DNA from: a virus | Lineage: Duplodnaviria > Caudoviricetes | Length of the DNA: 55,341 nt | Reading direction: 5' to 3' (one strand) | Virus record (IMG/VR): IMGVR_UViG_3300032213_001903 | Location: 1 to 55,341 of that record | Shown here: piece by piece, positions 5,538-47,131 of the stretch | How positions within the stretch are numbered: the first letter of the stretch is position 1 | Layout: every line of letters begins with the position of its first letter | The notes under the pieces: model-generated | What the model saw: the letters and a program-made list of their open reading frames with translations, nothing else | What the model was told of the DNA's origin: nothing | Database searches by the model: none | Position numbers and translations under genes: made by a program

Positions 5538-5732
5538 ATGGAAAATCAAGAATTAGTTTTTAACATACAACTAAATTTAGATCAGGTAAATGTGATACTA
5601 GCTACTATGGGCAAACTTCCATATGAGTCAATTGCTCCGCTAATGAATTCAATTCAAATGCAAGCAAGTTCACAAATGCAACAATATCAAGCAGCAAATA
5701 GCGTCAACGATTCAGACAGTTCTATTCAATAA
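5538..5732 (+). CDS. Hypothetical small protein
   Basis: ORF with AAGGA RBS. Confidence 0.65.
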   Translation: MENQELVFNIQLNLDQVNVILATMGKLPYESIAPLMNSIQMQASSQMQQYQAANSVNDSDSSIQ

Positions 5733-5741
5733 GAGGTGAAA

Positions 5742-6602
5742 ATGTCAAAAAGAATACTTGTTATGGGCCTTCCTGGCTCAGGGAAAACCTATTTTGCGGA
5801 AAGATTGAAAAAATATCTTGAAGACAATGGAGATATTTTTAAAGTAAATCCAGATAGATTGTTAAATTATGAGGGAATTCCTGATCATAAATTAATGAAA
5901 GTTTCAGTTGATTGGTTTAACGCCGATGAAATAAGAAAGCGTTTTAACGATTGGGATTTTAGTCGTGAAGGTAGAATTCGTCAAAGTCTTAGAATGTTTG
6001 AGTTTGCGGTAAAATGTTCGGGAGAATTTGTAATTTGTGATTTTGTCGCGCCGTTACCAGAAATGCGTCATAATTTTAAAGCAGACTGGACAATTTGGAT
6101 GGACACAATTGACGCAGGAAGATACGAAGATACTAATAAGGCATTTGTACCACCCGATCTATATGATTTTAGAGTTACTGAAAAGAACGCAGAGCATTGG
6201 GTCGAATTCGTAGGTAATCATATTTTAGAAGATCGTCGTAGACCTAAATTTGATTGGCAGAAAGAAACTGTTCAAATGTTAGGTCGTTGGCAACCTTGGC
6301 ACCCAGGTCATCGCAAATTGTTTGAACGAGCAATTGCTAAGACAGGACAAGTCTGTATTATGATTCGTGACTGTCAGGGGTGGAATAATTCAAATCCGTT
6401 TGCAGTAGAACAAGTTAAATCTTTCATTCGTAGAGATTTAGATCCTATCTACCAAGGACAGTACGATATTCAAGTTGTACCTAATATTGTGAACATTACA
6501 TATGGTCGTGATGTTGGTTATAAAATTGAACAAGAAGTATTTGATGATGCAACTCATAGTATAAGTGCAACTAAGATCCGCAAAGAAATGGGATTAGAGT
6601 GA
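5742..6602 (+). CDS. Adenylylsulfate kinase (CysC-like) fused to HxGH nucleotidyltransferase
   Basis: GLPGSGKT P-loop, NADEIR..DFSREGRIRQ; C-term GRWQPWHPGH and SISATKIR. Confidence 0.8.
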   Translation: MSKRILVMGLPGSGKTYFAERLKKYLEDNGDIFKVNPDRLLNYEGIPDHKLMKVSVDWFNADEIRKRFNDWDFSREGRIRQSLRMFEFAVKCSGEFVICDFVAPLPEMRHNFKADWTIWMDTIDAGRYEDTNKAFVPPDLYDFRVTEKNAEHWVEFVGNHILEDRRRPKFDWQKETVQMLGRWQPWHPGHRKLFERAIAKTGQVCIMIRDCQGWNNSNPFAVEQVKSFIRRDLDPIYQGQYDIQVVPNIVNITYGRDVGYKIEQEVFDDATHSISATKIRKEMGLE

Positions 6603-7004: not shown

Positions 7005-9326
7005 ATGCAAATATTAGTCACAAAACGAAACGGAACAAAAGAGACACTCACACTAGAAAAATGGCAATCTCAGGTGGCAAAAGTGTGCAATGGGATAGCT
7101 GATGTAAGTCCATCAATGATTGAAATTCGCAGTAATCCGCACTTTTACGATGGTATTAGTACACGAGAAATCGATGAAATTACATTACGAGCAATAGTTG
7201 ATTTAATTGATGTAGAGTCTAATCCAGACTTGGGTCATATTAATTATCAATATGTTGCTGGTAAAATGCGTTTAGGAATGCTGCGCAAAGATGTTTACGG
7301 GAAATATGAACCGCTAACTCTATACGAAATTGTAAAAAAGAATGTTAGTATTGGATTGTATACCAAAGAATTACTAGAATGGTATACTGAAGATGATTGG
7401 AACAAGATGAACGATATGCTTGATCATTCTAAAGATGAACAATATAGTTACGCAGCAATCGAACAACTGATTGAAAAATATCTAGTAAGAAATCGCTCAA
7501 CAAAGGAAATTTATGAAACTCCACAAATTAGATACATGGTCGCAGCAGCTACTGTCTTTCATAAAGAGGAACCCAACAGTGCTAGAATGCGATATATCAA
7601 AGAATATTATAACGCCGCTAGTGACGGTTTATTTACTTTGGCTACTCCTGTGCTTGCTGGTCTCGGTACTCCTACCAAGCAGTTTAGTTCCTGTGTTCTC
7701 ATTCGCAGTGATGATGACCTTGATAGCATTTTTGCTAGCGGGGAAATGATGGCTAAATATGCCAGTAAACGCGCTGGCATAGGTTTAGAGATCGGTAGAT
7801 TAAGACCTCTTGGTAGTCCCATCAGGGGCGGAGAGATCATGCACACTGGCATGATCCCTTTTCTAAAAAAATGGTTTGGTGATTTACGCAGTTGTTCACA
7901 AGGGGGAATTCGCAATGCTAGTGCTACTGTATTTTATCCTATTTGGCATCATCAGTTTGATGATCTTATCGTCCTTAAGAACAATCAAGGAACAGAAGAA
8001 ACCCGAGTCCGTCATATGGATTATGGGGTTGTGCTTAGTGCTTTCTTCTGGAGAAGATTCAAAAACAAAGAAAACATAACATTCTTTGATCCTAATGAGG
8101 TACCCGATCTTTATGAAGCTTTTTATAGCAACACAAAACTTTTTGAAGAACTTTATGTTAAGTACGAAAAACAAAAAGGACTTAGAAAAAAAGTCATAGC
8201 TGCTGAAGAAGTTTTTAAAGGGGGAGTTCTAAAAGAAAGAACCGACACTGGTCGTATATATCTAGTGTTCATTGATAATGTAATGAATCAAGGCCCATTT
8301 GATTCAGAATATCATACCATTTATCAGAGTAACTTATGCTGTGAAATACTATTGCCCACTAAACCATTCAAGAGACTTGATGATCCAGAAGGAAGAATTG
8401 CATTATGTACACTTGGATCAATCAACTGGGGAGCTTTCCGTAATCCAGAAGACATGCGCCGCGCTTGCAGGATTCTTCATCGCAGTCTTAATAACATTTT
8501 AGACTATCAAGATTTCTTGAGCATTCAAAGTAAATTATCTAACGATGAAATTCGCCCATTAGGTATAGGTGTTACTAACTTAGCATACTGGCATGCTAAA
8601 CGCAATTTTAAATACGGAGAAAAAGACTCACTACAAGAAGTTAAAAGTTGGATGGAACATCAGGCGTTTTATCTTACAGAGGCTAGTACAGAACTAGCGC
8701 AAGAACGCGGCCGTTGTATTGATAGTGATAATACTTATTATGGTAAGGGTATATTTCCTTGGGAACGAAGAGCCAATGGAGTAAATGAACTCGCAGATTT
8801 TACACCTGACTCAAGTTTAAATTGGGAAAATCTTCGTAATCAGATGAAAACATACGGTGTCAGAAATGCTACACAAATGGCTATTGCTCCTGTAGAATCT
8901 AGTAGTGTAGTGATTAATTCAACGAATGGTATTGAAATGCCAATGAGTTTGATTTCCGTGAAAGAAAGTAAAGCAGGATCATTTGTACAAGTTGTACCTG
9001 AATATCAAAAATTAAAAAACAAATATCAATTAATGTGGGAACAAAAAGATTGTGATGCATATTTGAAAACCAGTGCTGTGTTACAGGTATATGTAGATCA
9101 AAGTATTTCTACCAATACATTCTATAATCCTGCACACTTTAATGATCGTAAAGTTCCTACAACTCTTATTGCTAAAAACTTAATGAATTTTTATTACTGG
9201 GGAGGTAAAACATTGTACTACTCATTAATAAATAAACAAGGTTCTAAATCAGAGGATCCAATAAATTCACCATTACAAGAAATTAATTATGATGAAGAAG
9301 AAGCTTGCGAAGCTTGCACACTTTGA
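7005..9326 (+). CDS. nrdA: Ribonucleotide reductase class Ia alpha subunit
   Basis: ATP-cone VTKRNG, FSSC, SNLCCEI, APVESSS, C-terminal CEAC. Confidence 0.97.
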   Translation: MQILVTKRNGTKETLTLEKWQSQVAKVCNGIADVSPSMIEIRSNPHFYDGISTREIDEITLRAIVDLIDVESNPDLGHINYQYVAGKMRLGMLRKDVYGKYEPLTLYEIVKKNVSIGLYTKELLEWYTEDDWNKMNDMLDHSKDEQYSYAAIEQLIEKYLVRNRSTKEIYETPQIRYMVAAATVFHKEEPNSARMRYIKEYYNAASDGLFTLATPVLAGLGTPTKQFSSCVLIRSDDDLDSIFASGEMMAKYASKRAGIGLEIGRLRPLGSPIRGGEIMHTGMIPFLKKWFGDLRSCSQGGIRNASATVFYPIWHHQFDDLIVLKNNQGTEETRVRHMDYGVVLSAFFWRRFKNKENITFFDPNEVPDLYEAFYSNTKLFEELYVKYEKQKGLRKKVIAAEEVFKGGVLKERTDTGRIYLVFIDNVMNQGPFDSEYHTIYQSNLCCEILLPTKPFKRLDDPEGRIALCTLGSINWGAFRNPEDMRRACRILHRSLNNILDYQDFLSIQSKLSNDEIRPLGIGVTNLAYWHAKRNFKYGEKDSLQEVKSWMEHQAFYLTEASTELAQERGRCIDSDNTYYGKGIFPWERRANGVNELADFTPDSSLNWENLRNQMKTYGVRNATQMAIAPVESSSVVINSTNGIEMPMSLISVKESKAGSFVQVVPEYQKLKNKYQLMWEQKDCDAYLKTSAVLQVYVDQSISTNTFYNPAHFNDRKVPTTLIAKNLMNFYYWGGKTLYYSLINKQGSKSEDPINSPLQEINYDEEEACEACTL

Positions 9327-26814: not shown

Positions 26815-26867
26815 AGGATCGGTTCAGCAATTAAAAAAACTTTATATGAAAAAATTAAAAGCGTCCT
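26815..26867 (+). ncRNA. CAGCAA-clamp RNA #1 (short, degenerate; overlaps 5' end of the tRNA-Arg-like gene)
   Basis: AGGATCG-GTT-CAGCAA ... CG-TCCT. Confidence 0.5.
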
Positions 26868-26940
26868 TATACCCTCTGGCTACGAACCAGTTGAAAGGTT
26901 AGTTGGATACATGGAGGTTCGAATCCTCCAGGGCGCGCCA
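26861..26940 (+). tRNA. Atypical 'rewired' tRNA-Arg(ACG)
   Basis: Acceptor GCGTCCT/AGGGCGC+GCCA, normal T-arm, CTGG-CTACGAA-CCAG arm, D-loop-like AGTTGGATA located after the anticodon arm. Confidence 0.7.
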
Positions 26941-26984
26941 AACATAAATATTCAACAACATATATGATGTTACTAAATAAAAAT

Positions 26985-28223: not shown

Positions 28224-28297
28224 GCCCCTTTAGTTAAAAAGTATAACACTGTGCTGATAACGCAGAGTCGGAGGAGCGTTACCTCCCGGGGGTACCA
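28224..28297 (+). tRNA. tRNA-Ile(GAT)
   Basis: Loop CTGATAA; atypical T-loop AGCGTTA. Confidence 0.85.
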
Positions 28298-28303
28298 AGT
28301 TTT

Positions 28304-28367
28304 AGGATGCGTTCAGCAACTTTAATACATTAGACTTTTAATCTAAACCGTAAAAAAGCATCCTGTT
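28304..28367 (+). ncRNA. CAGCAA-clamp RNA #2 carrying a Lys(UUU) anticodon stem-loop
   Basis: AGGATGC/GCATCCT-GTT clamp, GTTCAGCAA, internal TTAGA-CTTTTAA-TCTAA. Confidence 0.8.
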
Positions 28368-28380
28368 ATTTTTGACCTTT

Positions 28381-28498
28381 AGGTTCTTTTCAGCAATTTA
28401 AATAATCTTTCTGGAAAAAAGAGGGTCTGGGTTCGAATCCCAGCACTAGGTTGGTCTCTAGTGTGGTGTAATGGTAGCACGAAAAAAGAGAACCTGTT
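28381..28498 (+). ncRNA. CAGCAA-clamp RNA #3 carrying a circularly permuted tRNA (YrlA-like)
   Basis: AGGTTCT/AGAACCT-GTT clamp; anticodon arm TCTTT-CTGGAAA-AAAGA, T-arm CTGGG-TTCGAAT-CCCAG, loop-closed acceptor CACTAGG/TCTAGTG, D-arm GTGT-AATGGTA-GCAC. Confidence 0.85.
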
Positions 28499-29449: not shown

Positions 29450-29566
29450 AGGGATACATACAGCAAATTCTATCCAAACGATAGGTAGTTGGTTCGATTC
29501 CAACATTACGCACATGCGTGATTAGCTCACTCGGTAGAGCATTCGTCTTAAAGACTGTATCCCGTT
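29450..29566 (+). ncRNA. CAGCAA-clamp RNA #4 carrying a circularly permuted tRNA (YrlA-like)
   Basis: GGGATACA/TGTATCCC-GTT clamp; CTATC-CAAAC-GATAG, T-arm GTTGG-TTCGATT-CCAAC, closed acceptor ATTACGC-ACAT-GCGTGAT, D-arm GCTC-ACTCGGTA-GAGC. Confidence 0.85.
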
Positions 29567-30174: not shown

Positions 30175-30735
30175 ATGGCTGTTCTAGCACTAGATATTTC
30201 GGGAGTTCCCCGGCAATGGATTTCGCATGATGATGCAATTACTTACCATGCAAAAAATGCAGTAGCATGGGCATTGGGTGAAGTAGTGGCTAAATATCGC
30301 GGCGGTGTTCAAAATGACGGAGAAATGAGTTATCTAGAAACTTCTAGCATAATTGCTATTAAAGGTCATGGTTTTAACCCACACAAACATGCTACTGTTG
30401 CATTGAGTAATAGAACATTGTTTGGTCGTGATCGTTATATTTGTGCATATTGCGGTGGGCATTTTCCTAATTATCACAATCTAAGCCGTGATCATATTAT
30501 GCCTAAAAGTCGCGGTGGTGAAAACATTTGGACAAATGTGGTAACCGCATGTAAGGATTGTAATGCTAAAAAAGGTCACAAACTTTTAAAAGAATGTAGC
30601 ATGGAATTGCTTTATGTTCCTTATGTGCCAAATCACTATGAAAATATGATTCTACAAAATCGTACAATCCTTGCAGATCAAATGGAATATTTGCTTGCTG
30701 GAGTACCAAAGCATAGTAGAATTTTATTGTCGTAA
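30175..30735 (+). CDS. HNH endonuclease (McrA-like)
   Basis: RDRYICAYCG, DHIMPKSRGG..W.NVVTACKDCN..KG. Confidence 0.9.
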   Translation: MAVLALDISGVPRQWISHDDAITYHAKNAVAWALGEVVAKYRGGVQNDGEMSYLETSSIIAIKGHGFNPHKHATVALSNRTLFGRDRYICAYCGGHFPNYHNLSRDHIMPKSRGGENIWTNVVTACKDCNAKKGHKLLKECSMELLYVPYVPNHYENMILQNRTILADQMEYLLAGVPKHSRILLS

Positions 30736-31391: not shown

Positions 31392-31517
31392 AGACTGTTT
31401 CTAAGTGTGCTGTAGTATAGTGGGAAGTACGCAAGGGCCCTCACGATTCATATCGTACGGTGGGAATCGCCAGTGAAACGATGGTTCGACTCCATCTAGT
31501 ACACTTAAAAACAGTTT
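31392..31517 (+). ncRNA. tRNA-like RNA with extended stalk and no CCA
   Basis: D-arm GTAT-AGTGGGAA-GTAC, T-arm GATGG-TTCGACT-CCATC, AGACTGTTT.TAAGTGTGCTG/TAGTACACTTA.AAACAGTTT stalk. Confidence 0.65.
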
Positions 31518-31812: not shown

Positions 31813-31948
31813 AGTAATAGGGAGAGTCGCTGCGAAGCGTATTCTTAAACGACCCGTAGAACTCCCGGGCGTCCCCAAGTAAGTTTTTGGTGACATGACA
31901 GATTTCAAATCTTACTTACAAATGATAAATACATTTAGGAGTAAGATT

Positions 31949-32374
31949 GTGAAACAAAACCATACTAACAAATTTACGGATGCTGATTTAATAGCACAAT
32001 ACAAGTTAACACCCACTTTAAGTAAACTTTCTCATTTTTTTAATGTACCTGATGTAACAGTCTGGCGCAGAGCAAAAAAATTAGGATTAGAATTTAAGAT
32101 AGGTGGTGCTAATGCTAAAATGCCTTTATCAGAGATTTTAGAAGGAAAGCATCCACAATATCAAAGTAATAAATTAAAAAACAGACTTATTAATGAAGGT
32201 ATAAAAGAAAATAAATGCGAAGAATGTGGTATTACTGAATATCAAGGTAAGCCTTTAGTGATGCAGTTAGATCACATAGACGGTAATACACATAATCATT
32301 TATACAGTAATTTAAAACTACTATGTCCAAACTGTCATTCTCAGACAGTAACATGGTGTGGTAAAAACAAATAA
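31949..32374 (+). CDS. HNH homing endonuclease
   Basis: CEECG, LDHIDGN..N...NLKLLCPNCHSQT; AGGAG before GTG 31949. Confidence 0.88.
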   Translation: MKQNHTNKFTDADLIAQYKLTPTLSKLSHFFNVPDVTVWRRAKKLGLEFKIGGANAKMPLSEILEGKHPQYQSNKLKNRLINEGIKENKCEECGITEYQGKPLVMQLDHIDGNTHNHLYSNLKLLCPNCHSQTVTWCGKNK

Positions 32375-34839: not shown

Positions 34840-34916
34840 ATATATTGTAGAGTTTAGATGATCGTTTAAATAAAAATATTAAACAGGTTATCGGTAAATG
34901 CCCGATAAATAGTGTG

Positions 34917-35669
34917 ATGATAACCACACGCAATAAATTTTATTTTTTTCTGATCGCCTATTTGACTTTATTTACATATTCATTTGTTGTAGATTTTAGT
35001 TGGATATGGCTAATCATCGGAATTATTTTAGCAAGAATTTTTAGTATTATTGGAATTGATTTAGGGTTCCATAGATATTGGTCTCATAAAGCATTTAAAT
35101 CTACAAGATGGTTTGAATATCTAATGATGTTTTGTGGTATTGTTGTGTATAACGGTAGCAGCATTATGTATGCAGGTACCCATAGAATGCATCATGCATT
35201 TAGTGATACTGACAAAGACCCACATGGTAGTGTTTGGTGGAAAGTTTGTCTGTATATGTATGAAGTAAAAGATATACCTATGAAAGTTATTAGCGATTTA
35301 ATTCGCATTGATTACCATAGATGGTGCCACAAACATTATTTTAAAATACATACAGTAATTTTATTAATCTGTTTATTAGATCCTGTATTTTTTGGACATA
35401 CAATTGGTTCGATTGTGTTTGGTGGGTTTATATTTACAGGAGTAGTTAATGTTCTTGCACATAGAAATGTAGGTTATAGAAATTTTGAAACTAATGACTC
35501 TTCAACCAACATAAGATGGTTACAAATTTGGTCCTTGCACGAAGGATTACATAATAATCATCACTATAAAGCTAGTGCATATGATTTTGCAATGAAAACA
35601 GGTGAGTTAGATATTTCCGCAGTTATATTAAGATTTCTAGCACGATTTAATATTGTCAAATTAACATAA
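34917..35669 (+). CDS. Membrane fatty acid desaturase (second copy)
   Basis: HRYWSH, HRMHH, EGLHNNHH. Confidence 0.9.
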   Translation: MITTRNKFYFFLIAYLTLFTYSFVVDFSWIWLIIGIILARIFSIIGIDLGFHRYWSHKAFKSTRWFEYLMMFCGIVVYNGSSIMYAGTHRMHHAFSDTDKDPHGSVWWKVCLYMYEVKDIPMKVISDLIRIDYHRWCHKHYFKIHTVILLICLLDPVFFGHTIGSIVFGGFIFTGVVNVLAHRNVGYRNFETNDSSTNIRWLQIWSLHEGLHNNHHYKASAYDFAMKTGELDISAVILRFLARFNIVKLT

Positions 35670-36182: not shown

Positions 36183-36258
36183 TGCGGCGTAGAGAAATGG
36201 CATCTCATCGGTCTCATAAGCCGAAGGTAGTTGGTTCGATTCCAACCGTTCGCAACCA
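36183..36258 (+). tRNA. tRNA-Met(CAT), initiator-like
   Basis: TGCGG../..CGCA-ACCA, GAG/CTC D-stem, loop CTCATAA. Confidence 0.85.
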
Positions 36259-36543: not shown

Positions 36544-36618
36544 GCCTGGATAGCTCAGGGGTAGAGCGTCTCCTTTACACGGAGAGGGTCCGCGGTTCGA
36601 AACCGTGTCCAGGTACCA
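36544..36618 (+). tRNA. tRNA-Val(TAC)
   Basis: Loop TTTACAC. Confidence 0.94.
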
Positions 36619-36625
36619 AGTTAAT

Positions 36626-36701
36626 GCGGGAATAGCTCAGTTGGTAGAGCGAGTGCTTGCCAAGCACTAGGTCGTCGGTTCGAACCCGATTTCCCGCTCC
36701 A
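36626..36701 (+). tRNA. tRNA-Gly(GCC)
   Basis: Canonical, loop TTGCCAA. Confidence 0.96.
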
Positions 36702-36715
36702 ATATTATTAATGTT

Positions 36716-37252
36716 ATGGCACATAAACAACAATTCGATTTCGTACAAAAAGTAAAATTAAAATACCCAACTTATTTTTTTCAAAAAAAGATTTTAGAAG
36801 TTGGTAGTTTAAATATCAATGGCACAGTTCGTGATTTTTTTAGTTACTGTGATTATTTAGGAATTGATGTTGGAGAAGGCCCAAGTGTTGATTTAGTATG
36901 TGAGGGTCAAACTTTAGATCACCCCGAAAATACATACGATACTACCGTGTCATGTGAATGTTTTGAACATAACCCATTTTGGGTAGAAACATTTAAAAAT
37001 ATGCACCGTATGACTAAATCGAATGGTTTAGTTTTTATGAGTTGTGCTACTACAGGTAGACCAGAACATGGTACCACTAGAACAAGTCCAAAAGATAGTC
37101 CATTAACTATTGGTAAAGGTTGGGATTATTATAAAAATTTAACTGAACAAGATTTCAGAGACAATTTAAACATTGACGATATGTTTTCTAGTTACATGTT
37201 TGAAGTAGGTCGTCCACATTGTGATTTGTATTTTTATGGAATAAAGAGGTAA
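36716..37252 (+). CDS. Class I SAM-dependent methyltransferase
   Basis: ILEVGS, YLGIDV..G..VD, ECFEH. Confidence 0.85.
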   Translation: MAHKQQFDFVQKVKLKYPTYFFQKKILEVGSLNINGTVRDFFSYCDYLGIDVGEGPSVDLVCEGQTLDHPENTYDTTVSCECFEHNPFWVETFKNMHRMTKSNGLVFMSCATTGRPEHGTTRTSPKDSPLTIGKGWDYYKNLTEQDFRDNLNIDDMFSSYMFEVGRPHCDLYFYGIKR

Positions 37253-37256
37253 TATT

Positions 37257-37457
37257 ATGCCACGCATTAGTAGTGAAAAAGCAGTGCAAGCAATTGGTAA
37301 CCGATATGATTTGGTTTTAATTGCGTCACTTAGAGCCAGAGAATTAAAAAATGGTAATTTGGCAAAAGTTAAAACTGAAAACGGACCAATTCTTACGGCT
37401 CTAAAAGAAATTGAAGATGGTCTTATCAAAAAAGATTATCTAAAACGAATTAGATAA
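37257..37457 (+). CDS. rpoZ: RNA polymerase omega subunit homolog
   Basis: MPRISSEKAV..IGNRYDLVLIASLRAREL...ALKEI.DG. Confidence 0.88.
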   Translation: MPRISSEKAVQAIGNRYDLVLIASLRARELKNGNLAKVKTENGPILTALKEIEDGLIKKDYLKRIR

Positions 37458-37471
37458 TTACCCAAAAATAA

Positions 37472-37510
37472 TAGACAACAAACAAATATTCATATACAAT
37501 ACATGTATTG
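37472..37510 (+). promoter_or_regulatory. Sigma70 promoter with CAATACATGTATTG palindrome
   Basis: TAGACA-17-TACAAT just upstream of clamp RNA #6. Confidence 0.7.
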
Positions 37511-37524
37511 AATGATTAAATTTT

Positions 37525-37697
37525 AGGATCGGTACAGCAACCATACTTATTACATGGACTGCTACACTTACCCTGTTACTAGCTGGAGCCTTAATTGGCT
37601 TTGAAGGTTGGTAACAATGCGCAAGCAAGGATCGTGTAGATAGAGGAGTTTCGATAAGTCTCCTCGATAAAAACAAAAAGTAGACAACGATCCTGTT
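37525..37697 (+). ncRNA. CAGCAA-clamp RNA #6 (~170 nt)
   Basis: AGGATCG-GTA-CAGCAA ... CGATCCT-GTT; inner CTACAC/GTGTAG, GTTACTAGC/GTTGGTAAC, GAGGAG/CTCCTC helices. Confidence 0.8.
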
Positions 37698-37703
37698 AAA
37701 CTT

Positions 37704-37936
37704 GGGATGTGTTCAGCATTTTAAACAACTTGATTACTGCTATTGAAGGTGGTCGAAGGACACAATAGAAATATTGTTCTAGTAATAGAAACTGATGGAA
37801 TAGATGACAGATTGGAAAGACAGCCTATGTTGTTAGTAGCAGACACAATTACTAACTAGACAACATGAATTGTTGGTATGGTCTGAGTAGCATAATTGGT
37901 CAGACCAGAAAATAAAAAAACTGCTACGAACATCCC
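37704..37936 (+). ncRNA. CAGCAA-clamp RNA #7 (~230 nt)
   Basis: GGGATGT-GTT-CAGCAT ... ACATCCC; inner ATGTTG.TTAGTA/TACTAA..CAACAT, TGGTCTGA/TCAGACCA helices. Confidence 0.75.
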
Positions 37937-37952
37937 GCTAACCCAAAACACA

Positions 37953-37981
37953 TTTACATTATATCTGAAATCAGTTATAAT
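37953..37981 (+). promoter_or_regulatory. Sigma70 promoter for clamp RNA #8 and the DUF2828-like gene
   Basis: TTTACA-17-TATAAT. Confidence 0.75.
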
Positions 37982-37989
37982 ACATTTTT

Positions 37990-38046
37990 AGGATGCATTC
38001 AGCAATCTTTAATACTTTTCATAATAGTAAAAAAGCGCATCCTGTT
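37990..38046 (+). ncRNA. CAGCAA-clamp RNA #8 carrying a CAU anticodon-like hairpin, in the 5' leader of the DUF2828-like gene
   Basis: AGGATGC-ATT-CAGCAA ... TACT-T-TTCATAA-T-AGTA ... GCATCCT-GTT. Confidence 0.8.
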
Positions 38047-38074
38047 GCATAACACACATAGAAAGGAGAGTACT

Positions 38075-39496
38075 ATGCAATTCGCCGAAGCAGTAATGAA
38101 CCAAGAAGTCCGTACTACTAATGGTATGAAGGCTCGCAAGTCAACAGCAAACGCCTGTGTTGATTTGTTTTATAACATCGGTGCAAGCCGAGGTAAAAAC
38201 ATCATCCCAGCATTTACTGCGGCATATGTAGAAAACTCTGATCTAGCATTGCGTATCGCCCAATGGGCGCGTGATGCGCGTGGGGGTTCAGGTGAACGAG
38301 AATTGTTCCGACAAATCTTGTCTTACTTGGAAGTAGCTAATCCAACAGACGCTAGCCGTCTATTGGCTAAGGTTCCTGAATTGGGACGCTACGATGACTT
38401 GTTTGTTTTTAAGACTAAGAATCTTAAAACACAGGCATACACTATGTTGGGCGATGCATTGCGTAACCGTAATGGATTGGCTGCAAAGTGGACCCCACGA
38501 AAGGGCGATGTTGCACGAGAAATTCGTGAATTCTTTGGTATGACTCCAAAGCAATATCGTAAGAGCCTTGTTGCATTGACCAATGTCGTTGAAACACAAA
38601 TGTGTGCCAACGATTGGGACAATATCAACTATAGTCATGTACCATCCGTGGCACATGCACGATACAAGAAGGCTTTTGGTCGTCATGGTACAACTTATGC
38701 AGAGTATGTAACCAAGTTGGTTAAGGGTGAAGCTGGTGTTAAAATTAACGCTGGTGCAGTATTCCCTTACGATGTATTGAAGGGTGCTATCAACAAGTAC
38801 AGCCGTAGTTCAATGACTAAGACTGAGTTGGATGCATTGCAAGCTCAATGGGACGCATTGCCGAACTTCATTGGTGATAGTAATGTTTTACCAATGGTTG
38901 ACAGTTCAGGTTCTATGACTTGTGCCGCAGGTGGACCTTCTTCAAAGAGTGGTTTGACTTGTTTGGATGTTGCAATCTCATTGGGATTGTATTTTGCAGA
39001 CAAGAACACTGGTAAGTTCAAGGATACTTTCTTGACTTTCAGTCGCACTCCTAAGTTGGTTAACCTTAAGGGTAATATCAATCAAAAGATTGATCAAATG
39101 AACACTGGTGAAGTTGCTAACACCGACTTGAACAAGGCGTTTGATTTGATCCTTAAGACTGCTGTAGATAACAGTGTGCCTCAAGCAGAAATGCCTGAAA
39201 CTCTTGTGATCTTCAGTGACATGCAGTTTGATCAAGGTGTTGACCATGATGACAGTGCTATCGAAATGATTGCACGAAAGTACAAGCTTGCAGGTTACGA
39301 ACTTCCAAAGGTCGTATTCTGGAACTTGAACGCCGCATACGGCAACAGTCCAGTTAAGTTTAACAAGGCAGGTGTTGCGCTAGTCTCAGGATTTAGCCCA
39401 GCAGTTGCACAAGGTATGCTTAGTGGTAACATGGATGACTTCACCCCAGAAGCAATCATGCTGAAGACCGTTATGAAGGATCGTTATTCAGTTTAA
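38075..39496 (+). CDS. DUF2828-like TROVE/vWA protein (Ro60/Rsr-related RNA-binding protein)
   Basis: T.NG..A, WARDARGGSGER, GRYDD, AAKWTPRKG, VETQMCAN.W..INYS.VPS; vWA MIDAS DSSGS..NTD..SDMQFD; VVFWNL, LVSGFSP; AAAGGAG RBS. Confidence 0.85.
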   Translation: MQFAEAVMNQEVRTTNGMKARKSTANACVDLFYNIGASRGKNIIPAFTAAYVENSDLALRIAQWARDARGGSGERELFRQILSYLEVANPTDASRLLAKVPELGRYDDLFVFKTKNLKTQAYTMLGDALRNRNGLAAKWTPRKGDVAREIREFFGMTPKQYRKSLVALTNVVETQMCANDWDNINYSHVPSVAHARYKKAFGRHGTTYAEYVTKLVKGEAGVKINAGAVFPYDVLKGAINKYSRSSMTKTELDALQAQWDALPNFIGDSNVLPMVDSSGSMTCAAGGPSSKSGLTCLDVAISLGLYFADKNTGKFKDTFLTFSRTPKLVNLKGNINQKIDQMNTGEVANTDLNKAFDLILKTAVDNSVPQAEMPETLVIFSDMQFDQGVDHDDSAIEMIARKYKLAGYELPKVVFWNLNAAYGNSPVKFNKAGVALVSGFSPAVAQGMLSGNMDDFTPEAIMLKTVMKDRYSV

Positions 39497-39519
39497 CCAC
39501 TGATAATGATACTATCTTA

Positions 39520-39549
39520 AAATAGCACCCTTAGTGGTGCTATTTTTTT
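39520..39549 (+). terminator. Rho-independent terminator
   Basis: AAATAGCACC-CTTAGT-GGTGCTATTTTTTT. Confidence 0.85.
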
Positions 39550-39601
39550 GGTTGATGAAAACCAAAAATATAGTATAATGATAAAACTATAAAGGTAAGA
39601 T

Positions 39602-39859
39602 ATGAAATTTAAGCGTTGGCAACTTGTTAGTAACGATTCAGTGTGGATGTTTCCTCCCGATGTTCAATTGAGTACAGTATCATTACACCCTGATATTTAT
39701 GAAGATACCCCTTTTGAATCATGTTTATTTTATAGTAACGGTGATAGTGATGTAATTTGCAGATACAAAACACAAGAAGAAGCTTTATTGGGTCATATTG
39801 AATTGGAAAAGAAATATGGTCTAAAGAGATGTACAGAATTAAAGATTTATAATACTTGA
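39602..39859 (+). CDS. Hypothetical protein
   Basis: ORF with upstream TATAAT; RYKTQEEALLGH segment. Confidence 0.65.
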   Translation: MKFKRWQLVSNDSVWMFPPDVQLSTVSLHPDIYEDTPFESCLFYSNGDSDVICRYKTQEEALLGHIELEKKYGLKRCTELKIYNT

Positions 39860-44977: not shown

Positions 44978-47131
44978 ATGAAACTTCACAGTGCCGTTCA
45001 AAATGAAGCCATCGTTTCCAATGTAGGAGAGATTGGCGAGTTTAGAATTCGTAATTCGGCTAAAGCATTTAATATTCTATCTAGCGGTCTATATGCAAAT
45101 AAAATCCGTGCTATCATCCGTGAACTGAGTTGCAATGCCGTTGACAGCCATGTTGCCGCAGGTAAACAGGATACTCCCTTTGATGTTCATCTGCCTAACG
45201 CACTGGAACCTTATTTTTCTATCCGTGACTATGGTACTGGTCTAAGCCACAATCAAGTCACCAATATCTATACTACTTATTTTGAATCCACCAAGACCGA
45301 TAGTAATGAATTTATCGGTGCGCTTGGTCTGGGTTCTAAGAGTCCATTCAGTTACACCGACAATTTTACTGTGACCGCAGTCAAGGATGGTCGCAAAGGT
45401 GTCTACACCGCCTTCATTAACGACCAAGGTGTGCCCAGTATCGCCCTAATGATGGAAGAACAAACCACTGACCCTGCAGGTGTCGAAGTGCGGTTTGCTG
45501 TAGATAGTCGCTATGATTTTGATAAGTTTCGTCAAGAGGCTCGTTATGTCTATGAATATTTCAAATTGCGCCCGGTGATTAAAGGCAGCGCAGATTTTAA
45601 ATTCACTGATCCCGAATACAAAGAAAAAGATATTATTCCCGGCGTACATAACATTGCAGGCAATCGCAGTTATGCAGTGATGGGAAATATCAAGTATCCT
45701 ATTGAAATTCCTAATGCAGAAAATAGTCTCGGTAAACTGCATACCTTGCTAGGTTGCGGCCTCGTCATGGAATTTAATATTGGTGAACTTGATTTCCAAG
45801 CAAGTCGTGAAGGTCTGAGTTATATCCCCGAAACGATTCAATCTATTAAGCGTAAACTTGAGGCACTGAATGGACAATTGTCTATTCATATTGCTAATGA
45901 AGCCAACAAGATTGAAAATCTGTGGGATCGTGCAGTGTATCTGTCTGTTCGGCACAATGAAAATCTTTGGTCTAATGCAGTAATCAAGTATGTTGCTGAT
46001 ACCAAGTTTGAATTATTTGATCCTCACACTAGTCGTTGGCAATATCTCAAACAATTCAAACTGGATGTGAAGGATCTTGAAAGTAAGTACAACATTGTTA
46101 TCCGCGGTTTTTCAAAATCTCGTGGTGTTGCTACTTGTACTAACCTTAAGTTTCATACAGGTTATCAACAAACTGCCAATGGTCAAGTCTTGCAACAAGA
46201 GTGGCACATCACTGTGTCTGAGGATGTGAACTTTGTTATCACTGATACCAAAGTTGGTGCGTTGGAGCGCAGTAAGTATCATTGGAAGAATATTCAGTTG
46301 ACCAAACATCACAACCATGTGTATGTTATTGAGGCTGCTGACAAAAACAAACCAATGAAAACTGATCAGTTTTTCAATGATATCTACAATCCTCCTGCAA
46401 GTAAAATCTTTGTAGCAAGCGATCTCTTACTGAAGGATCGTGCTAGTAGTCTAGGAAAGAATGTCACTATCCTGCATTTGGTGGAGGGCGCACGCCGTGG
46501 TCGTTGGAGTAGTTCTACCCCAATGGTTTGGCACGATGCTGGAAAAGCTGATAATTTTGATAGTAATGAAACCTATTATTATCTACCGCTTAGTGGCTTC
46601 AAGTGTTTGGGTCTTGTTGAAGATGTTAAAAATCTTCACCTTAATCTACAAAAGAGTGGTATCTTTACTTACACCATCTATGGTGTGCGTAAGAATGATC
46701 TAGAGTGGGTAAAACTACAAAAGAACTGGGTTAACCTTAACGAACATATCAAGGACAAACTCAGCAAAATGGGTAACGCAGATGTGATGGGTTTGGTTAA
46801 ACAGGCTATTGACTGGAAAGACCTTTATCAGTATAATGCTATCAAGCATGTAACGAATCCGAATAGTCCTTATGTTGTCCTGTTCAATACTTTTAAAGAT
46901 GTAAAAGTAGAAGATGGTAGCCGCAAAGTTCATCTTGAATGGTTGTGCAAAATGTATTCGGTACAAACTCAAGCAAATGTTGATCCGTCACAATTGATTG
47001 ATAAGTACACTAAGATGGTCGGAGATATTTACAAGCGTTACCCACTGTTGAAGCATATCAGCCGATACAGCGTCCAAGCAAACGATATTGCTGAATACAT
47101 TAATTTGATTGATTCTCACAAAGGAGTTTAA
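44978..47131 (+). CDS. rIIA: RIIA-like lysis inhibition/anti-exclusion protein
   Basis: GHKL ATPase: IRELSCNAVDSH, RDYGTGL, STK..IGALGLGSKSPF; upstream of rIIB. Confidence 0.9.
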   Translation: MKLHSAVQNEAIVSNVGEIGEFRIRNSAKAFNILSSGLYANKIRAIIRELSCNAVDSHVAAGKQDTPFDVHLPNALEPYFSIRDYGTGLSHNQVTNIYTTYFESTKTDSNEFIGALGLGSKSPFSYTDNFTVTAVKDGRKGVYTAFINDQGVPSIALMMEEQTTDPAGVEVRFAVDSRYDFDKFRQEARYVYEYFKLRPVIKGSADFKFTDPEYKEKDIIPGVHNIAGNRSYAVMGNIKYPIEIPNAENSLGKLHTLLGCGLVMEFNIGELDFQASREGLSYIPETIQSIKRKLEALNGQLSIHIANEANKIENLWDRAVYLSVRHNENLWSNAVIKYVADTKFELFDPHTSRWQYLKQFKLDVKDLESKYNIVIRGFSKSRGVATCTNLKFHTGYQQTANGQVLQQEWHITVSEDVNFVITDTKVGALERSKYHWKNIQLTKHHNHVYVIEAADKNKPMKTDQFFNDIYNPPASKIFVASDLLLKDRASSLGKNVTILHLVEGARRGRWSSSTPMVWHDAGKADNFDSNETYYYLPLSGFKCLGLVEDVKNLHLNLQKSGIFTYTIYGVRKNDLEWVKLQKNWVNLNEHIKDKLSKMGNADVMGLVKQAIDWKDLYQYNAIKHVTNPNSPYVVLFNTFKDVKVEDGSRKVHLEWLCKMYSVQTQANVDPSQLIDKYTKMVGDIYKRYPLLKHISRYSVQANDIAEYINLIDSHKGV

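Follow-up and report, generated by a model that had tools for sequence, protein, structure and literature searches.

A 54-nt element (37990–38043, + strand), the two ends of which are joined by a 7-bp stem, was found in the 5′ leader of a gene for a Ro60-like protein in IMG/VR virus record IMGVR_UViG_3300032213_001903 (Duplodnaviria; Caudoviricetes), which was analysed over its whole stretch of 55,341 nt (hereinafter referred to as the window). The element is a real conserved RNA with covariation and not a chance fold. With a probability of about 0.55, we regard it as the smallest member of a Y-RNA-like family encoded with the Ro60-like ring protein, that is, as a Y-RNA-like partner module which arises in cis as the 5′-terminal part of the mRNA and to which the protein would bind. 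Members of this family are called clamp RNAs below, and those of the smallest size class minis or mini clamps. The leader and its gene were laid out in the window as follows.

37953–37981, + strand: sigma-70-type promoter (TTTACA at 37953–37958, 17-nt spacer, TATAAT at 37976–37981), predicted to serve the leader and the Ro60-like gene
37990–37996, + strand: 5′ arm of the clamp, AGGATGC, starting at the 9th nt past the −10 hexamer (8-nt gap); probable 5′ end of the transcript
37997–38005, + strand: conserved junction motif N3-CAGCAA (here ATT CAGCAA)
38007–38035, + strand: inner hairpin, CTTT/AAAG and then TACT/AGTA closing U-UUCAUAA-U
38030–38034, + strand: A-run 5′ of the 3′ arm of the clamp
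38037–38046, + strand: 3′ arm of the clamp, GCATCCT (38037–38043), with the conserved tail GTT (38044–38046)
38062–38077, + strand: Shine-Dalgarno (SD) sequence AAAGGAG (38062–38068) and the start codon ATG (38075)
38075–39496, + strand: gene for the Ro60-like protein (DUF2828 helical ring and DUF7788 vWA domain)
39519–39546, + strand: terminator-like hairpin followed by a T-run, closing the unit

A preliminary description of this DNA had named the TTTACA/TATAAT promoter, a clamp starting about 9 nt further on with the hairpin TACT-T-TTCATAA-T-AGTA, and an end of the clamp about 30 nt before the ATG. All of this was borne out by the sequence: the hairpin is composed of TACT (38013–38016), T, TTCATAA (38018–38024, with CAT at 38020–38022), T, and AGTA (38026–38029), and the clamp ends 31 nt before the ATG and 21 nt before GGAG. 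The promoter matched the consensus at 11 of 12 positions and was the best of eight promoter-like sites in 36600–39700; as a class, such sites were not enriched in this region (8 observed, 9.5 expected).

When 37990–38043 was folded alone, exactly the clamp and the hairpin were obtained (−9.5 kcal/mol, z −2.41; 3 of 200 shuffles equal or better). Together with its flanks (37985–38075), the element was not distinguishable from shuffled sequences (z −0.39; 73 of 200). Folding energy by itself was weak evidence for the element, and the decisive support is comparative. A self-search of the window revealed a second copy at 28300–28367. A comparison set comprising the window and 80 related viral contigs (protein 78–95% identical; 1.05 Mb in total) was scanned for a pattern consisting of a 7-nt arm, three bases, CAGCA, a complementary arm at most 400 nt away, and G[TC]T. 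This motif-plus-stem pattern with its G[TC]T tail occurred 255 times on the strand of the gene (+) vs twice on the − strand. A complementary partner followed by G[TC]T was present for 225 of the 276 5′ motifs, as against 4 of 276 with shuffled arms. The 15-nt motif alone, with up to three mismatches, was not enriched (25 found, 17.5 expected), so that only the joint test of stem and motif was informative. The family contained 24 distinct arm pairs, the 5′ and 3′ arms of which covaried.

Further, a covariance model (R1) was trained on 16 non-leader mini copies from other contigs, none of them from the window. On the leader of the window (37986–38047), R1 gave 52.6 bits with an E-value, under rough calibration, of 2.9e-11. 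In the comparison set, 141 of 141 R1 matches lay on the strand of the gene (+), both strands having been searched. Over both helices, 96.7% of the cells in the alignment of these matches were paired, with changes on both sides in 9 of 12 pairs; for the clamp helix, the values were 99.8% and 4 of 7 pairs. The covariation score was reached by none of 500 shuffles, and slid controls were 36–47% paired; the alignment had been fitted to the model, which favours pairing. CAGCA was invariant in 48 aligned leaders and in the 16 non-leader copies. Three candidates were rejected in the course of this work. A pseudoknot between CAGCAAC and GUUGC, 3′ of the 3′ arm of the clamp, would have no linker to cross the 7-bp stem, and GTTGC/GCTTC did not covary with the class of the motif. 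A candidate clamp at 46752–46881 was false, lying inside an open reading frame (ORF) of 717 aa and giving no R1 match. An alternative fold hiding the SD sequence, which was the first minimum free energy structure of the window leader with its flanks, was not conserved across 52 leader variants.

The repeated occurrence, the inverted-repeat ends and the abundance of HNH and GIY-YIG homing-endonuclease genes in the region might also be expected of a repeat acting at the DNA level, such as a miniature mobile element, a recombination site or a protein-binding palindrome. However, the strand polarity of the matches was strict, and G-U pairs, which would be A-C mismatches on the opposite strand, were tolerated on the strand of the gene only (AGGATGT/GCATCCT was seen 10 times). 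Compensatory changes occurred in two nested helices, larger members contained tRNA-type arms, and no target-site duplications were noticed. A DNA repeat is hardly credible against this evidence, and the element is an RNA.

Among 77 orthologous upstream regions, those of the window and of 76 other loci, all but one contained the mini clamp (76 of 77); three loci that were too short and one with a match from residue 60 were left out. It occurred in 45 distinct versions and was always located 27–33 nt before the ATG. The proposal that a clamp RNA forms the 5′ leader of the DUF2828-like gene was thus upheld as a real conserved module. The exception, L066, has the 3′ arm of a larger clamp RNA at the corresponding site ahead of GCATAA-SD. 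The arms of the leader clamps covaried (AGGATGC/GCATCCT, AGGATAC/GTATCCT, GGGATAC/GTATCCC), and so did the inner stem (TACT/AGTA, TCTT/AAGA, TTTCA/TGAAA, TTAGA/TCTAA, TTTGA/TCAAA). In thermodynamic predictions for the 52 leader variants, the clamp formed with a mean probability of 0.92 and the SD sequence was unpaired with a mean probability of 0.74; no conserved RNA switch hiding the SD sequence was found over these variants.

A promoter matching at least 10 of 12 consensus positions and ending 7–9 nt (11 nt once) before the clamp was identified in 56 of 76 leaders, with a gap of 8 nt in 48. With this 8-nt gap past the −10 hexamer in most promoter-bearing leaders, the transcript would begin at the clamp. 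Such a promoter was missing from 20 of the 76 leaders. In at least 13 of these, the 3′ arm of a preceding clamp RNA lies 8–15 nt upstream, and the element there would therefore be made from a longer transcript. In metatranscriptome contigs from four runs, the leader bins had little or no cover, and RNA ends and strand are not readable from such contigs; one 269-nt contig with a single mismatch spans 37833–38101. Since carry-over of DNA is possible, the contigs were not taken as evidence of transcription units. In one run, the contigs at 37684–37935, on the 233-nt clamp RNA upstream of the leader, had word depths of 265–325 vs 3–6 on the ORF; contig depth is a poor measure, and high abundance of the large clamp RNA is no more than hinted at.

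The promoterless leaders, many of which abut an upstream clamp RNA, would also suit a stand-alone, trans-acting small RNA, the last of a tandem array, which is cut behind CCUGUU and lies in front of the gene for co-expression and not for regulation. Identical flanks (a U-run before AGG and GUU past CCU) were found on paralogues within a tRNA array, which must be excised, and in other phages clamp RNAs are located downstream of the gene or kilobases away from it. In the Salmonella rsr-yrlBA-rtcBA operon, Y RNAs are likewise co-transcribed with rsr. In contrast, the distance of 27–33 nt to the ATG is constant in the leaders while the upstream sequence is reshuffled, and in L066 the same place before GCATAA-SD is occupied by the arm of a larger clamp RNA. 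The layout is also kept in Synechococcus phage BUCT-ZZ01 at 48% protein identity, and the leader hairpins have drifted from anticodon geometry, unlike the free paralogues, which suggests a different constraint. A purely stand-alone role is possible but, on the whole, unlikely.

The stem begins at the predicted transcription start and its flanks are conserved in all family members, which is what a generic 5′-terminal stabiliser or processing hairpin, unrecognised by the protein, might look like, the shared motifs then being RNase signals of the stable RNAs of the phage. Indeed, 5′ stem-loops stabilise bacterial mRNAs. This explanation leaves unaccounted for the stem-plus-CAGCAA module around tRNA mimics, the closed hairpin within normal-order tRNA-like genes of Cronobacter phage S13, Aeromonas phage Ahp1 and BUCT-ZZ01, and the co-occurrence with the Ro60-like gene together with absence from T4, T5, phiKZ and SPO1, and appears quite improbable.

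The other members of the family in the window, all on the + strand, were the following.

37704–37936, + strand: 233-nt clamp RNA (GGGATGT ... ACATCCC GCT), directly upstream of the leader promoter
37525–37694, + strand: 170-nt clamp RNA (AGGATCG ... CGATCCT GTT), with a promoter-like site at 37472–37500
28304–28364, + strand: 61-nt mini clamp, an anticodon-arm mimic TTAGA-CUUUUAA-TCTAA (triplet UUU); R1 84.6 bits
28381–28495, + strand: 115-nt clamp RNA around a circularly permuted tRNA mimic (anticodon arm, T arm, closed acceptor, D arm)
29451–29563, + strand: 113-nt clamp RNA of a second tRNA-like type, with an Rfam YrlA match of 27.5 bits inside
26815–26867, + strand: degenerate mini clamp with a bulged stem, abutting an odd tRNA-like sequence; R1 39.7 bits, E 8.5e-8

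Family members fell into size classes of approximately 50–63, 110–119, 160–170 and 230–246 nt. The constant parts were the terminal stem, CAGCA(A) past the 5′ arm, the A-run before the 3′ arm, the U-run before AGG and GU(U) past CCU, between which a variable cargo is carried. The leader of the window showed the 7-bp end-pairing stem, N3-CAGCA(A), the A-run, the G[TC]T tail, a score from a model not trained on it, and linkage to the gene. The 110–119-nt class corresponded to a complete, circularly permuted tRNA, in the order anticodon arm, T arm, loop-closed acceptor stem and D arm. Weak Rfam matches were obtained for 28381–28495 (tRNA, 22 bits; YrlA, 20.8 bits), and in orthologues of 29451–29563 the whole YrlA model was aligned at 30.8 bits vs a gathering score of 69. 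In the permuted mimic with arms AGGTTCT/AGGTTCA (28381–28495 and its orthologues in L005–L072), TCTTT/AAAGA and the loop frame C-U...A-A were identical in the 16 variants listed, while the triplet took six values among them (GAA, GGA, GCG, GUA, ACG and GCA). Among non-leader minis, 17 of 18 distinct sequences had a 7-nt loop; all 17 carried U at the second loop position (U33) and 15 a purine at the sixth (R37), and the triplets were UUU, UCU, UGU, GUA, GUC and CAA.

The preliminary description had read the leader loop as a CAU anticodon-like loop and had suggested a cleavage sensor for toxins that target tRNA-Met, such as VapC. A loop UUCAUAA is indeed present in the window, and CAU was the commonest triplet in leaders, found in 29 of the 45 distinct variants (55 of 76 loci). 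The other variants carried GUA, GCA, CCA, UCU, GAU and more. In addition, leader loops varied from 6 to 9 nt, and U occupied the second position in only 8 of 20 seven-nt loops. True anticodon-arm geometry belonged to the non-leader paralogues, and the leader hairpin would be a loosened copy of an anticodon arm. The tRNA-Met/VapC sensor was not supported for the leader.

In full, that idea would make the element an anticodon-nuclease decoy or sensor, in which a mimic of the tRNA-Met/fMet anticodon arm is cut or bound by a host toxin acting on tRNA, for example VapC, so that expression of the Ro60-like protein is linked to the attack. In its favour, a 4-bp stem with a U.U pair and a 7-nt loop U-U-CAU-A-A can be drawn for the window copy, the prevalence of CAU among leaders fits, and the paralogues are very good mimics of anticodon arms, including the AGGTTCT/AGGTTCA type with its fixed stem and frame and changing triplet. 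A Ro60-like protein of phage Bas63 has also been reported, in a preprint, to counter the Ppl defence (PMC11482910). Nevertheless, the loop sizes and the scarcity of U at position 2 do not suit it, 16 of 45 leader variants lack CAU, BUCT-ZZ01 has a GC-rich hairpin instead, and nothing connects the family specifically with VapC or tRNA-Met, which makes a decoy of this kind improbable.

The second copy (28304–28364) is situated within an array of 32 tRNA genes in the window. Several other observations were made in this array and around it. The 3′ arm of the degenerate mini clamp overlaps the 5′ acceptor strand of a tRNA-like sequence (region 26815–26950) ending GGTTCGAATCC...GCCA, which was not called by ARAGORN. 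Rfam tRNA matches missed by the same program were located at 28224–28294, 36184–36254 and 31406–31504, of which the last (34.1 bits) measures 99 nt and has a large insertion inside. HNH endonuclease genes (30175–30735 and 31895–32374) and, in mid-array, a gene with a fatty-acid desaturase domain (34914–35669; 4.8e-11) were also encoded. A 66-aa ORF just 5′ of the clamp RNA array (37257–37457) contained an RNA polymerase Rpb6/omega domain (8.2e-12), which is unusual in a phage. Genes for a methyltransferase, an Rpb6-like protein, a phosphoesterase (PHROG 547) and a desaturase, as well as for HNH and GIY-YIG endonucleases, neighbour the leader and its gene. Megablast of 37700–39600 gave no match to phage records.

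In many tRNA-rich phages, the family accompanies the Ro60-like protein, and it was also found in cultured phages (BUCT-ZZ01, S13, Milchi, nt-1 and a Felixounavirus). BUCT-ZZ01, the protein of which is 48% identical, has three tandem clamp RNAs before the gene, the last ending 22 nt from the ATG; the layout is the same as in the window, with a GC-rich leader hairpin. In Pseudomonas phage Milchi, tRNA genes are interspersed with four minis, and S13 has a 135-nt permuted clamp RNA; in both phages, copies lie beside the Ro60-like gene. S13, Ahp1 and BUCT-ZZ01 carry, in addition, the opposite permutation, a tRNA-like gene in normal order with an open acceptor stem, in which the clamp, as a closed hairpin, separates the D arm from the anticodon arm (A-run, 6–7 bp, 4-nt loop, AUUC[A/U]GCA). 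This form is a circular permutation of the 115-nt class of the window. Those genes were annotated as a 121-nt 'tRNA-Ser', 'tRNA-OTHER' or 'tRNA-Pseudo', the one in BUCT-ZZ01 being unannotated, and were located as follows.

S13 (L084), 5875–5995 and 6005–6117: closed-hairpin tRNA-like genes
Ahp1 (L088), 8322–8435: closed-hairpin tRNA-like gene
BUCT-ZZ01 (L083), 5702–5815: closed-hairpin tRNA-like gene

Proteins of Felixounavirus phages are about 41% identical to the window protein over 97% of its length. In one of them, UAB_Phi87 (41% identity), a pattern scan revealed four unannotated clamp RNAs up to 1.2 kb downstream of the gene, with arms AGACCNN/NNGGTCT and a tail GG, which gave no R1 match. 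In the leaders of KVP40 (L094, 3090–3200) and nt-1 (L087, 3890–4000), only the 5′ half (arm and CAGCAA-TTAAT) was found, just before the SD sequence. These half-clamps follow a TTTACA/TATAAT promoter with a palindromic spacer. In a control of nine genomes, R1 matched four of the five named genomes bearing the gene, always on the strand of the gene, and none of the four lacking it (T4, T5, phiKZ and SPO1); the fifth gene-bearing genome was UAB_Phi87, where copies beside the gene were seen by the pattern scan only. Judged by these co-occurrences, the family is genomically tied to the DUF2828/DUF7788 gene. In Serratia phage BF, the second gene upstream of the Ro60-like gene encodes an RNA ligase, and a tRNA nucleotidyltransferase gene is located nearby (L086, 2256–3515 and 8811–9455). 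This neighbourhood hints at an RNA-repair context in that lineage; the window has no such context, no RNA-repair gene having been found beside the leader element.

The product of the ORF at 38075–39496 matched DUF7788 (2.7e-42) and DUF2828 (2.8e-26) in Pfam and PHROG 850, 'RNA-binding protein' (1.2e-141). An AlphaFold2 model built from 81 diverse homologues had a predicted local distance difference test (pLDDT) score of 92.8 and a predicted template-modelling (pTM) score of 0.92. The top 13 Foldseek matches, which extended over the full length of the model, were all Ro60/TROVE chains (E 1e-8 to 2e-6, TM 0.42–0.62), including Xenopus and human Ro60, Deinococcus Rsr and the Ro60 of Thermus phage phiLo, with isolated vWA domains next. 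The metal ion-dependent adhesion site (MIDAS) motif of vWA domains is D-x-S-x-S. D276, S278, S280, T350 and D382 were invariant in 81 aligned homologues, a MIDAS-type D-x-S-x-S being present. The protein is thus predicted to be Ro60-like, with a helical-repeat ring and a C-terminal vWA domain. Homologues occurred in 711 phage records, including Felixounavirus, KVP40-like, Listeria, Staphylococcus, Campylobacter and mycobacterial phages, and are labelled 'Ro-like RNA binding protein' in mycobacteriophage records. With the model of a Ro60-like protein and the linkage of the family to its gene, the earlier suggestion of a co-transcribed partner RNA becomes the natural reading.

The following working is proposed for the partner module. 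Transcription from the promoter at 37953–37981 would start at A37990 or about 2 nt around it, and the first 54 nt would fold at once into the 7-bp stem, a single-stranded CAGCAA junction facing the A-run, and a variable hairpin. The stem and the CAGCAA/A-run junction would form the docking site of the co-inherited Ro60-like protein, because they are the only part common to all members in either permutation, the rest being swappable. The protein would then bind its own mRNA leader in cis. One possible result (i) is feedback on translation or stability, with a ring of about 50 kDa seated on the 5′-terminal stem 21 nt from the SD sequence. Another (ii), compatible with the first, is a ribonucleoprotein of about 57 nt, released by cleavage behind CCUGUU, a cut that the paralogues embedded in the tRNA array must also undergo. 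Autoregulation through the leader would be plausible from the arrangement of the sequence.

Several points weigh against a Y-RNA-like partner in the leader. A Ro60-binding helix is not recognisable in the leader, the stem of which is just 7 bp long. Rfam models of Y RNA and YrlA did not match the leader, and the tRNA-like paralogues reached 20.8–30.8 bits vs 69. The SD sequence is predicted to be free with or without the clamp, so that any feedback must be steric, at a distance of 21 nt. The control for presence and absence, at nine genomes, is small. On the protein side, no match to Pfam TROVE (PF05731) was found at E-values up to 0.01, and a PDB sequence search gave 0 matches at E-values up to 10. 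Moreover, no clamp was present in the leaders of S13, BF, Ahp1, Milchi and UAB_Phi87, and no mini clamp in that of L066; the leader position is specific to some lineages, and a cis role would accordingly be dispensable for the protein.

Beyond the leader, clamp RNAs could be interchangeable baits made of tRNA parts and displayed on the Ro60-like ring, which lure readers of anticodons such as anti-phage anticodon nucleases. The constant stem and CAGCAA would dock, and host factors would be lured by the variable module, be it a lone anticodon arm or an entire permuted tRNA; the triplet would change fast in an arms race within a fixed loop frame C-U...A-A. We consider this unlikely. If it were true, the leader copy would tie production of the ring protein to the same bait, and the Ppl counter-defence by the Ro60-like protein of Bas63 would be one instance. 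For the Y-RNA-like partner module, the family provides concrete, testable partner RNAs in cultured phages, some of them unannotated and some labelled as tRNAs, and its placement in the mRNA leader of the protein itself makes feedback control of a Ro60-type ribonucleoprotein directly testable.

According to Chen et al. (2014; PMC4201824), genes for Y RNAs lie next to Ro60 genes, and some Y RNAs mimic tRNA. Clamp RNAs resemble those of the YrlA type (RF02553) in that they adjoin the gene of a ring protein that is Ro60-like by predicted fold, occur as several paralogues, pair their 5′ and 3′ ends into a stem, and include at least one RNA per genome with a T arm, closed acceptor stem and D arm in YrlA order. 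They differ in that the matches to the model, partial or over its whole length, remain far below the gathering score, and in that their stem is as short as 7 bp and adjoins a distinctive CAGCAA/A-run junction. Some clamp RNAs carry an anticodon arm only (approximately 55–60 nt), whereas the tRNA-like ones keep the anticodon arm and are thus full permuted tRNAs. Normal-order tRNA-like genes also contain the module, there in the form of a closed hairpin. The linked protein belongs to the DUF2828/DUF7788 branch and not to Pfam TROVE, and one member is an mRNA leader. The YrlA tRNA-like domain, present in 28381–28495 and 29451–29563, is lacking in the leader, which has a single hairpin.

In Thermus phage phiLo, two small RNAs, Yrl1 and Yrl2, lie directly upstream of the Ro60 gene and bind its product in an electrophoretic mobility shift assay, as described by Hu et al. 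(2025; PMC12135203). The phiLo protein (PDB 9l5y, 9kop) is, like the window protein, a phage protein of the Ro60 type, and its structure was among the top Foldseek matches of our model, but no similarity between the two was found at the sequence level. In that text, the Yrls are defined by a CGAA motif in a large bulge and not by CAGCAA beside a short terminal stem, and no anticodon-arm modules are described (PMC12135203). The Ro60-like protein of Bas63 (Felixounavirus), gp130, is reported to counter the Ppl defence in the one functional study found, and this PhageMaP preprint notes its structural similarity to Ro60 and its neighbourhood of tRNA genes, with the guess that some of these 'tRNA genes' are Y RNAs; the RNA partner was only guessed at there and none was identified (PMC11482910). 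From genus-level relatives, gp130 is probably a DUF2828 homologue. As seen in UAB_Phi87, the Felixounavirus clamp RNAs differ from those of the window in their arms (AGACCNN/NNGGTCT-GG) and in a leader without a clamp. A protein atlas search returned only viral DUF2828 clusters.

A further resemblance was found to the Class I RNAs of dictyostelids (RF01414), which are, according to Kjellin et al. (2021; PMC7919456), about 42–65 nt long with a 6-bp end-joining stem, ends of the type (A)AG...CUGU, an 11-nt motif directly past the 5′ arm and a variable middle. The sequence of the leader resembles this architecture, including an A-rich stretch before the 3′ arm, and 37991–38044 aligned end to end with the Rfam model Dicty_Class_I_RNA at 29.8 bits (E 2.9e-4 in a 121-nt search; gathering score 41.5). 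The alignment spans the stem, the consensus motif CUUACAGCAAU of the model with its CAGCAAU core, the A-run and the CUG(U) tail. Relative to the Class I motif, that of the leader has one deletion and different first bases; the stem, the length, the CAGCAAU core and the CCUGU tail are present at the sequence level. Other members of the clamp family scored 20.1, 17.0, 21.4 and 16.4 bits, below the gathering score, and the model gave no match in Milchi or in a 62-kb search at E-values up to 1. Class I RNAs come from eukaryotic genes with a Dictyostelium upstream sequence element (DUSE) promoter and are directly bound by Rnp1A, a protein with an RNA recognition motif, and none is reported outside Dictyostelia in that text (PMC7919456). 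A short AU-rich design reached by convergence is the simpler explanation, and common descent is very unlikely indeed.

In literature searches, the scope of which did not extend to most subscription journals or to the phage tables of Chen et al. 2014, no description of clamp RNAs was found. The family would be previously undescribed and a new form within the Ro60/Y-RNA theme.

Ribosomal-protein leaders and the operator of E. coli thrS, with its anticodon-arm mimics, are autoregulatory operators that mimic the RNA ligand of the protein. By analogy, the leader would be a copy of the presumed RNA ligand of the Ro60-like protein, placed in its own 5′ untranslated region near the ribosome-binding site. 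It differs from those operators in ending 21 nt before GGAG without overlap, and in being likely also a stand-alone RNA. Compared with known Ro60 systems, the clamp RNAs would extend the Ro60/Y-RNA theme by a minimal form of 54 nt, by mimics consisting of an anticodon arm only, by natural circular permutations, and by placement in the leader of the protein's own mRNA.

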